A stretch of 61,600 nt of DNA from a virus (Duplodnaviria; Caudoviricetes): positions 1 through 61,600 of IMG/VR virus record IMGVR_UViG_3300029787_000035; one strand, written 5' to 3'. Made by a program: the position numbers and the translations under genes. The notes below the pieces were generated by a model. It saw only the letters and a list, made by a program, of their open reading frames with translations. It was not told the DNA's origin and did no database searches. How positions within the stretch are numbered: the first letter of the stretch is position 1; each line of letters starts with the position of its first letter. This document shows, piece after piece, positions 6,166 to 6,538 of this stretch.

Positions 6166-6381
6166 TCAAGTTTTTTTTCTTCTAAAAAATGTTCTCCAAA
6201 ACCATGATCTACAAATTGAAATAGCCGTGAATATTACTGCTATATGAAAAGACTCCCATACTGTTGGGTACATATCGAAAAATGGAAATATATATAGCTG
6301 CACTAATGTTGAAAGTAATAGCCCTGATCCTACATCAATAAGTGTTTCGAAGAGATTTCTCATAATAAAACCTAGGCTCAC
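6166..6381 (-). CDS. Small two-TM membrane protein (probable start ATG 6363)
   Basis: FETLIDVGSG...FTAISICRS..WR pattern of a common phage membrane family. Confidence 0.65.
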   Translation of the reverse strand: MSLGFIMRNLFETLIDVGSGLLLSTLVQLYIFPFFDMYPTVWESFHIAVIFTAISICRSWFWRTFFRRKKT

Positions 6382-6458
6382 TAGAAAGGAATTTCAAAAA
6401 CGTGAGCCTAAGTTAACTAACAATTGAGGTAATGAAAATGATAACAAACATTACTCAA
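6364..6458 (-). ncRNA. Candidate two-hairpin small RNA, or leader of the 6363 gene
   Basis: Minus-strand TTGACG(6486-6491)-17-TAAAGT(6463-6468); stems 6424-6434/6449-6458 and 6373-6381/6402-6410, then a U-rich tail. Confidence 0.45.
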
Positions 6459-6538
6459 GATAACTTTAGTGTATCGGCTTGGATCCGTCAATCGTTTATC
6501 TAGGTCAATGGCACAGTGACCACGGTTCACGGGGCTGG

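Follow-up and report, generated by a model that had tools for sequence, protein, structure and literature searches.

The sar RNA of phage P22 is a short phage RNA that is made from its own promoter, runs antisense across the ribosome-binding site of ant, and blocks translation of this gene in cis. Small RNAs (sRNAs) acting through seed pairing, including the prophage-encoded DicF, combine a 5' stem-loop, a single-stranded seed, and an intrinsic terminator, and they target the initiation regions of several mRNAs. The immunity RNAs c4 of P1/P7 and CI of P4 use short complementary boxes to shut off a set of phage genes, also in an incoming related phage. In phage T4, the RegB protein is described as cutting GGAG in the initiation regions of early genes, where RegA competes with ribosomes (PMC3014915). 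Here, we describe an element located on the minus strand, from 6491 to 6364, of a 61,600-nucleotide (nt) stretch of viral DNA (Caudoviricetes; IMG/VR record IMGVR_UViG_3300029787_000035, positions 1 to 61,600), hereafter the window, which, judged by its sequence, is an HTVC023P-type pelagiphage. Comparison with relatives argues that the element is very likely a conserved small-RNA gene. As for its product, we favor, with a probability of roughly 0.5, a small non-coding RNA of ~90 nt that would represent a new family of phage sRNAs and that probably represses the translation of a small set of genes defined by their leaders.

The preliminary description of this DNA had read a promoter, two hairpins, a linker, and a U-rich tail on the minus strand between 6491 and 6364, and all of these parts are present there. 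A -35 hexamer TTGACG (6486-6491) and a -10 hexamer TAAAGT (6463-6468) are separated by a 17-nt spacer (promoter match 9/12) and would place the transcription start near 6456, ~7 nt past the -10 hexamer. Hairpin 1 (6424-6458) consists of a 5' arm (6458-6449), a 14-nt loop containing CAU (6448-6435), and a 3' arm containing CCUC (6434-6424). It is followed by the unpaired linker UUGUUAGUUAA (6413-6423), our proposed seed, with the core TGTTAGT; by hairpin 2 (6371-6412), terminator-like, with 11-13 pairs and a long loop containing UCCUUUCUA; and by the U-rich tail UUUUAUU (6364-6370), which directly adjoins the ATG (6363-6361) of a gene for a small DUF7220 protein. From the promoter and the putative terminator, the predicted small RNA of ~93 nt would extend from 6456 to 6364. 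The fold of a 99-nt stretch of the element reaches -27.5 kcal/mol (z = -5.7), and none of 200 shuffles folds as well. Moreover, the plus strand of the element, as missed by the preliminary description, is a complete look-alike of a phage leader, with the shared leader motif, GAGG, and ATG at proper spacing; this is why the antisense RNA matches the leaders of other genes.

Within the window, promoter-like sites are not enriched (41 found versus 43.9 expected between 4000 and 13000); alone, the promoter of the element is thus at chance level, and it is validated through its conservation in relatives. Hairpin 2 is absent from a scan with the terminator consensus, which admits only loops of 3-8 nt, and the U-run of the window itself is short (4 U). 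The covariance models of Rfam 15 gave no match at gathering score across the whole window; at E up to 10, five weak matches fall within 6000-6800, and none of them overlaps 6364-6491, so that no family, c4 among them, reaches even E = 10 on the element. In metatranscriptome contigs from four runs of one study (X1-X4), examined over 5000-9000, the depth of the bin 6340-6473 is 0, 0, 0.3, and 0, which says nothing either way, since such contigs show neither small RNAs nor strands and the region is hypervariable among relatives.

The relatives were 80 IMG/VR loci retrieved with the protein of terS, the terminase small subunit gene; 65 of them hold at least 700 nt upstream of terS. Alignment of the upstream regions and motif-anchored extraction recovered the same unit in at least four sequence types, between which the hairpin sequences differ while the order of the parts is constant. 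The covariance model R1, made from 40 distinct copies, was used to search the window as well as HTVC023P, HTVC027P, and the full set of 80 loci. Its sole match in the window scores 88.8 bits (E = 1.5e-12). At E <= 0.0013, it matches the window, HTVC023P (MN698239, around 10800-10906), and 54 of the 65 assessable IMG/VR loci. Each source has one match, which in every case is antisense to terS and 293-1328 nt upstream. Divergent copies were seen by eye in four more loci (model E = 0.065-0.11), and a search of the whole records found exactly one copy in each of four HTVC023P-like records. In the whole record of HTVC027P, R1 has no match; hence, the published infection transcriptome of that phage cannot test the RNA. 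A 16-mer scan of IMG/VR returned 55 matching contigs, of which 26 contain the full element and were mostly already in our set; the other 29 have no R1 match at E <= 0.01.

The two-hairpin structure is maintained while its sequence changes. All 40 distinct copies fold into two hairpins (median z = -5.8). In the R1 alignment, 95.3% of the cells pair, compared with 65.6% in shuffles, and changes on both sides are found in 18 of 18 pairs (7/7 in hairpin 1 and 11/11 in hairpin 2); when the partners were slid as a control, pairing fell to only 28-44%. Because the R1 alignment was fitted to the model, it leans toward the structure. RNAalifold, run on MAFFT alignments of single types with no structure given, recovered both hairpins from 18 type-B sequences, with compensatory changes in 8 of 20 pairs, and from 10 type-A sequences, with compensatory changes in 12 of 19 pairs, and the linker is unpaired in both consensus folds. 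The same program on the mixed-type MAFFT alignment of 40 sequences returned 0 pairs, because the sequence types are misaligned in the stems. The covariation of the stems, which had been put forward as a check on the RNA, is thus borne out both by the R1 alignment and by the type-wise folds.

As for the strand, in 40 of 45 distinct copies the predicted RNA folds more stably than the opposite strand (by a mean of -5.2 kcal/mol), a count that is not a probability, the copies being related. The difference is due to U·G pairs in the minus-strand RNA, and this bias identifies the strand opposite to terS as the transcribed one. The signals at both ends of the unit are conserved as well. A -35 element of the type TT[GT]AC with a -10 element TAnnn[ACT] is kept in 44 of 46 distinct copies, with a spacer of 17 nt in 37 copies and of 18 nt in 7; the sequence of the spacer drifts and its length is kept. 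After hairpin 2, at least 5 T occur within 8 nt in 31 of 46 distinct relatives.

Between the hairpins, the core of the linker, TGTTAGT (UGUUAGU in the RNA), is the only invariant block of the 40-sequence alignment. The plus-strand complement of the linker, AACTAACAA, has five exact occurrences in the window, always on that strand: in the element (6415) and at 7994, 8006, 8716, and 11756, where 1.66 occurrences are expected (first-order Markov) and 3 of 200 simulations reach 5. Each of the four copies outside the element is followed within 40 nt by a start codon; positions of this kind account for 5.9% of the genome (binomial p = 1.2e-5; one leader holds two of these copies, so that the four are not fully independent). 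Of the 91 called genes, only four have the shorter ACTAAC in the 40 nt before their start, namely, 8025, 8735, 10833, and 11778, all between terS and terL, and in HTVC023P the motif precedes the same four orthologs. The linker had been presented as the exact complement of stretches in the leaders of genes 8735, 8025, and 11778; this complementarity is real, and the invariant core, the type-wise folds, and the ranking of the targets all designate the linker as the conserved, unpaired, and leader-complementary part of the RNA. The loop of hairpin 2 fared otherwise. It had been seen as complementary to Shine-Dalgarno (SD) sequences, through matches to TAGAAAGGA at 5400 and AAGAAAGGA at 9539; allowing at most one mismatch, 27 matches are found versus 30.6 expected, which is chance level, and the loop sequence differs between the four types. 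We therefore rejected loop 2 as an anti-SD element.

Predicted targets were scored by the energy gain of the full predicted RNA with 55-nt initiation windows, the cost of opening both structures being paid; 200 random windows served as controls for the phage window (best control, -14.4 kcal/mol) and 150 for HTVC023P. This structure-aware score replaced an unconstrained duplex scan, which was noisy. Among the 90 initiation regions of the window, all of the following lying on the plus strand, the leader-SD-ATG of gene 8735 (8716-8737) ranks first with -18.9 kcal/mol (0/200 controls), the leader of gene 1915 (1892-1917), whose motif has one mismatch, ranks second with -18.9 kcal/mol (0/200), the leader-SD-ATG of gene 11778 (11756-11780) ranks third with -14.9 kcal/mol (0/200), and the leader of gene 8025 (7994-8027), which holds two copies of the motif, ranks fifth with -13.8 kcal/mol (1/200). 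The leader of gene 8025 is the commonest best partner among relatives. In HTVC023P, gp27 (ortholog of gene 11778) and gp24 (ortholog of gene 8735) rank first and second of 24, and 0 of 150 controls are as good. Of 51 distinct sets from the relatives, 18 have an anti-leader segment that outperforms all 100 shuffles, and in 43 no more than 5 of 100 shuffles do as well. In the commonest sequence type, the 3' arm of hairpin 1 together with the linker differs at only 2 of 22 positions from the exact antisense of a leader-SD-ATG present in the same phages.

Gene 8025 was also found to have a near-consensus promoter, TTGACA-16-TATATT (11/12; 7948-7991, plus strand), with an inverted repeat ATATTCAT-N4-ATGAATAT overlapping the -10 and start region; both are kept in relatives, and the arrangement looks operator-like.

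Sequence comparison shows a conserved promoter, structure, strand, and seed, together with the complementarity; we infer that the RNA is made, that it has the ends proposed, that it pairs in vivo, and that it represses. A host-type (sigma-70-like) promoter on the minus strand would start the RNA a few bases before hairpin 1, and hairpin 2 with its U-run would end it. The RNA would run antisense across an orphan look-alike of the phage leader-SD-AUG, so that its linker (UUGUUAGUU), along with CCUC in the 3' arm and CAU in the loop of hairpin 1, would complement the leaders of genes 8735, 11778, 8025, and 1915. The linker would nucleate pairing just upstream of the SD sequence, and pairing would then spread into the SD and the start codon, so that ribosome binding would be blocked and the mRNA possibly exposed to decay. 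Extending this, one may imagine an RNA "address" system in which a single RNA controls a conserved set of four genes, the orthologs of HTVC023P gp23, gp24, gp26, and gp27, and takes part in the exclusion of relatives: as seed and leader are the same across all sequence types, the RNA of a resident phage would also silence those genes in any superinfecting phage of the HTVC023P type. We consider this proposal speculative and rather doubtful.

Several observations weigh against a repressor RNA of this kind. Regarding the RNA gene, 15 of 46 distinct copies have a C as the last base of the -10 hexamer, which would weaken an E. coli-type promoter; in 11 of 46 copies, hairpin 2 is part of a convergent gene, at its 3' end, with only 2 T in the next 8 nt; and 7 of 65 loci have no copy. 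The whole records behind L059, L063, L066, L078, and L081 gave no R1 match; one of these records, from one of the seven loci, is 98% complete. Regarding the targets, initiation regions taken together show no better pairing than random windows do (Mann-Whitney p = 0.10), the set from the window is among the weaker ones by simple duplex energy (6 of 100 shuffles are as good), and an unconstrained scan of both strands with the 35-nt anti-leader segment found several non-initiation or coding windows that match the scores of the leaders. The enrichment of the 9-mer is modest, ~1.3-5x, with 5, 4, 6, and 6 copies in four genomes versus 1, 3, 4, and 3 for the reversed control. Moreover, the leader motif persists in L059 and L063, relatives without the RNA; hence, the motif must have an mRNA role of its own, which the RNA at most exploits. 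Co-evolution of the seed with its targets, sought in the three lineages with altered seeds (L061/62, L064/65, and L045/48), was not found, the leaders present being mostly standard, with one partial coincidence in L065; similarly, the distance from SD to AUG in the RNA varies independently of the distance in its best target. Finally, descent from a paralogous leader would by itself give complementarity, so that the match alone does not prove action in trans.

The preliminary description, which proposed a trans-acting sRNA directed against translation initiation signals, therefore stands in part. Its discrete unit from promoter to putative terminator is strongly backed by the comparison of relatives: the unit is conserved, its stems covary, one strand is the more stable, and it is kept where no gene follows. 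A general action on initiation signals is not, as the class comparison above indicates: the RNA is not a generic anti-SD RNA, and only a few motif-bearing leaders, those ranked 1, 2, 3, and 5 of 90, stand out from the controls.

An RNA that acts only where it is made is the first alternative to be weighed. As a cis-acting antisense RNA or transcriptional insulator, it would act locally on plus-strand read-through from the replication genes, through collision of RNA polymerases or cutting of a long duplex, and would keep early transcription out of the terS/packaging block, the likeness to leaders being a historical accident. The unit indeed always has the replication module on one side and the conserved block that precedes terS on the other; the gene at 5592-6065 ends in a hairpin without T-run, so that read-through across the element is plausible; and a perfect 90-nt complement exists only in cis. 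However, local action leaves the conserved leader motif, the SD-like block, and the ATG unexplained, since stems, loops, and promoter spacer drift and TGTTAGT alone is invariant, and it gives no reason for the exact coincidence of the unpaired part with the motif shared by the leaders. It also presumes transcription of the plus strand through the site. We regard this explanation as unlikely.

The genes around the unit bear on a second alternative, in which the element would be the 5' leader or attenuator of minus-strand accessory genes such as DUF7220, with hairpin 2 attenuating transcription, stabilizing the mRNA, or masking the SD, and with no independent function of the RNA. The DUF7220 gene of the window (6166-6363, minus strand; 65 amino acids [aa]; Pfam PF23858, E = 1.5e-14) is the sole minus-strand gene nearby, and both here and in 13 loci it points the same way as the RNA. 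In these, it starts 7 nt after hairpin 2 and no other promoter is visible; moreover, its weak SD (AGG) lies inside the stem, and the U-run of the window is, as said, only 4 U long. In the window, part of the transcription probably reads through hairpin 2 into DUF7220, this being the only route to the gene that we can infer here. The unit (promoter, hairpin 1, and linker) is nevertheless kept in L013, L014, L016, and L049, all of which lack the DUF7220 gene and have no gene downstream, L014 having 7 T after hairpin 2. In 13 other loci (L018, L020, L025, L032, L037, L039, L043, L053, L054, L056, L060, L061, and L062), it is kept with the DUF7220 gene inverted and convergent on the RNA, the last codons of the gene forming hairpin 2. 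HTVC023P-like loci have instead another gene upstream of the promoter and long T-runs (8-10 T) after hairpin 2. As the unit persists with DUF7220 absent or inverted, it is not merely a DUF7220 leader; across the loci compared, the putative RNA unit is the constant part and the surrounding genes are swapped. We thus find a role as leader or attenuator distinctly improbable.

A type I toxin-antitoxin pair formed by the RNA and DUF7220 was considered and rejected, since the RNA occurs without the gene (L013, L014, L016, L049, and HTVC023P-like loci) and is co-oriented with it in the window. The start of DUF7220 in L020 is overlapped by a frame of 20 codons that has a good SD, and the leader of DUF7220 in this locus does not contain the shared leader motif.

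The swapping of neighbors could also suggest a fossil initiation region at a recombination junction, the look-alike and the hairpins being remnants of cassette exchange that were kept by recombination rather than by selection on an RNA. The element does border a hypervariable cassette site, occupied by DUF7220 either way round, by other genes in L045 and L059, and by gp20 in HTVC023P; a second orphan leader-SD-ATG with a two-codon frame lies on the minus strand at 6135-6108; and the loop of hairpin 2 holds an SD-like remnant. A fossil, however, would keep neither a promoter with 17-nt spacing in 44 of 46 copies nor compensatory changes in 18 of 18 pairs, and it would not show the U·G strand bias seen in 40 of 45 copies, which makes this origin a poor explanation of the locus.

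Little speaks for a transcript that primes or activates a replication origin in the repeat- and A-tract-rich region upstream of terS, which we deem very improbable: CTAGGAAA-type repeats and A-tracts are found 100-300 nt away (6560-6750), but transcription heads away from them and ends after ~90 nt, and in HTVC023P-like loci a whole gene lies between the promoter and the repeats, the GC skew, uniformly positive with no turning point near 6.4 kb, being uninformative on an origin rather than contrary to it. Since the plus-strand look-alike is an initiation region, a short plus-strand peptide (21 aa, 6438-6503) controlled by the antisense RNA, in the manner of P22 sar or of a type I toxin-antitoxin system, had to be considered, and with leader, GAGG, and ATG at correct spacing and hydrophobic peptides of 24-32 aa from some copies it has its attractions, but it is scarcely credible and was rejected, as the frame ranges from 0 to 58 codons in 44 distinct copies (2 without ATG and 10 with at most 4 codons) and its sequence is not conserved beyond the constraint of the hairpins.

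The assignment to pelagiphages stems from the region 5600-7400, for which megablast matched one phage record, the SAR11 phage HTVC023P (Pelagibacter phage), with 81% identity; the alignment begins at window position 6518 and runs across terS (6784-7290; Pfam Terminase_2, E = 9e-6). According to PMC12753301, phages of the HTVC023P type are lytic. In the window, the plus strand carries almost all of the long reading frames, and the element is located between the last gene of the replication block (5592-6065, plus strand) and terS.

Directly after the stop codon of the gene at 5592-6065, a hairpin is present at 6064-6100 (plus strand) and, in the HTVC023P locus L001, at ~7104-7137. The core of its loop, AGGGAGCAA, is kept and its stem varies between relatives, of the CTGCAG type in some and of the CTTAGAGGG type in others; a T-run follows it on neither strand, and the loop 9-mer occurs once in the window. 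Instead of terminating transcription, this hairpin could serve for processing or for binding a protein. The second orphan unit (6169-6108, minus strand), immediately downstream of DUF7220, has a promoter-like TTGAAA-17-TAAAGT, the shared leader motif, a strong SD AGGAG, and the two-codon frame ATG AGT TAA (leader-SD-ATG at 6135-6108); it is kept in L002, L003, L005, L006, L012, and L069. On the other side of the element, the block before terS (6519-6783, plus strand), kept down to HTVC023P, has a direct repeat CACGG-N2-CACGG at 6521-6533, two long A-tracts, each followed by TTTGTAAGG, and about six CTAGGAAA-type repeats, some as inverted pairs (6598-6690); it may be a packaging-recognition or regulatory region. 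In HTVC027P (L082), most of the genome is encoded on one strand and terS and gp30-gp34 (7094-9510) on the other, and the transcriptome paper on this phage places gp30, gp33, and gp34 in "extra" temporal clusters (PMC12753301).

In the literature, the study of 80 HTVC023P-type genomes (PMC9599517) is silent on promoters, small or noncoding RNA, terminators, and intergenic regions, and the HTVC027P transcriptome paper (PMC12753301) is silent on sRNA, antisense or noncoding RNA, and promoters. In the literature collection searched, we found no paper joining pelagiphage and sRNA and no description of pelagiphage regulatory RNAs. An RNA gene that is conserved, present in one copy, and endowed with a defined seed and few predicted targets would offer a handle on post-transcriptional control in a culturable pair, HTVC023P and Pelagibacter HTCC1062. 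It would also show how an orphan initiation region, when transcribed from the opposite strand, can give rise to a regulator of all the genes that share its leader. The address system, if true, would amount to RNA-based exclusion or interference among relatives in one of the ocean's most abundant virus groups.

The comparison with known systems shows partial likeness in each case. In T4-type phages, PeSLs consist of an early promoter and a stem-loop that flank swapped gene cassettes; the element borders a site of cassette exchange, but each genome has only one copy, and in many cases no gene follows it. The enterococcal par/fst locus forms an RNA I-RNA II pair, and in 13 relatives the RNA and the small membrane-protein gene DUF7220 likewise converge and share hairpin 2 as a 3' stem-loop; here, however, the RNA is often found without DUF7220 or co-oriented with it, and the L020 DUF7220 leader is devoid of the motif. 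With c4 and CI, the element shares a predicted action on short boxes in phage messages, whereas those RNAs are processed from longer transcripts and serve temperate immunity, and here there is no Rfam match and the phage group is lytic. As with RegB and RegA of T4, a phage function would act on some of the phage's own mRNAs through their initiation regions; those agents are proteins, while the agent proposed here is an RNA recognizing the leader motif and the SD. The layout of stem-loop, seed, and putative terminator, as well as the multiple predicted targets in initiation regions, is that of DicF-type sRNAs; the difference is that the predicted targets are the phage's own genes, with the motif just upstream of the SD, and that the RNA would come from a lytic phage. 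P22 sar, finally, is likewise antisense across a ribosome-binding-site sequence and has its own promoter, but it has no sequence similarity to the element and covers the real ant initiation region, whereas the region overlapped here has no conserved frame. Since this overlapped initiation region is an orphan, the partner in cis would be vestigial and the matching sites lie in other genes, which is the distinctive trait of the RNA proposed here.

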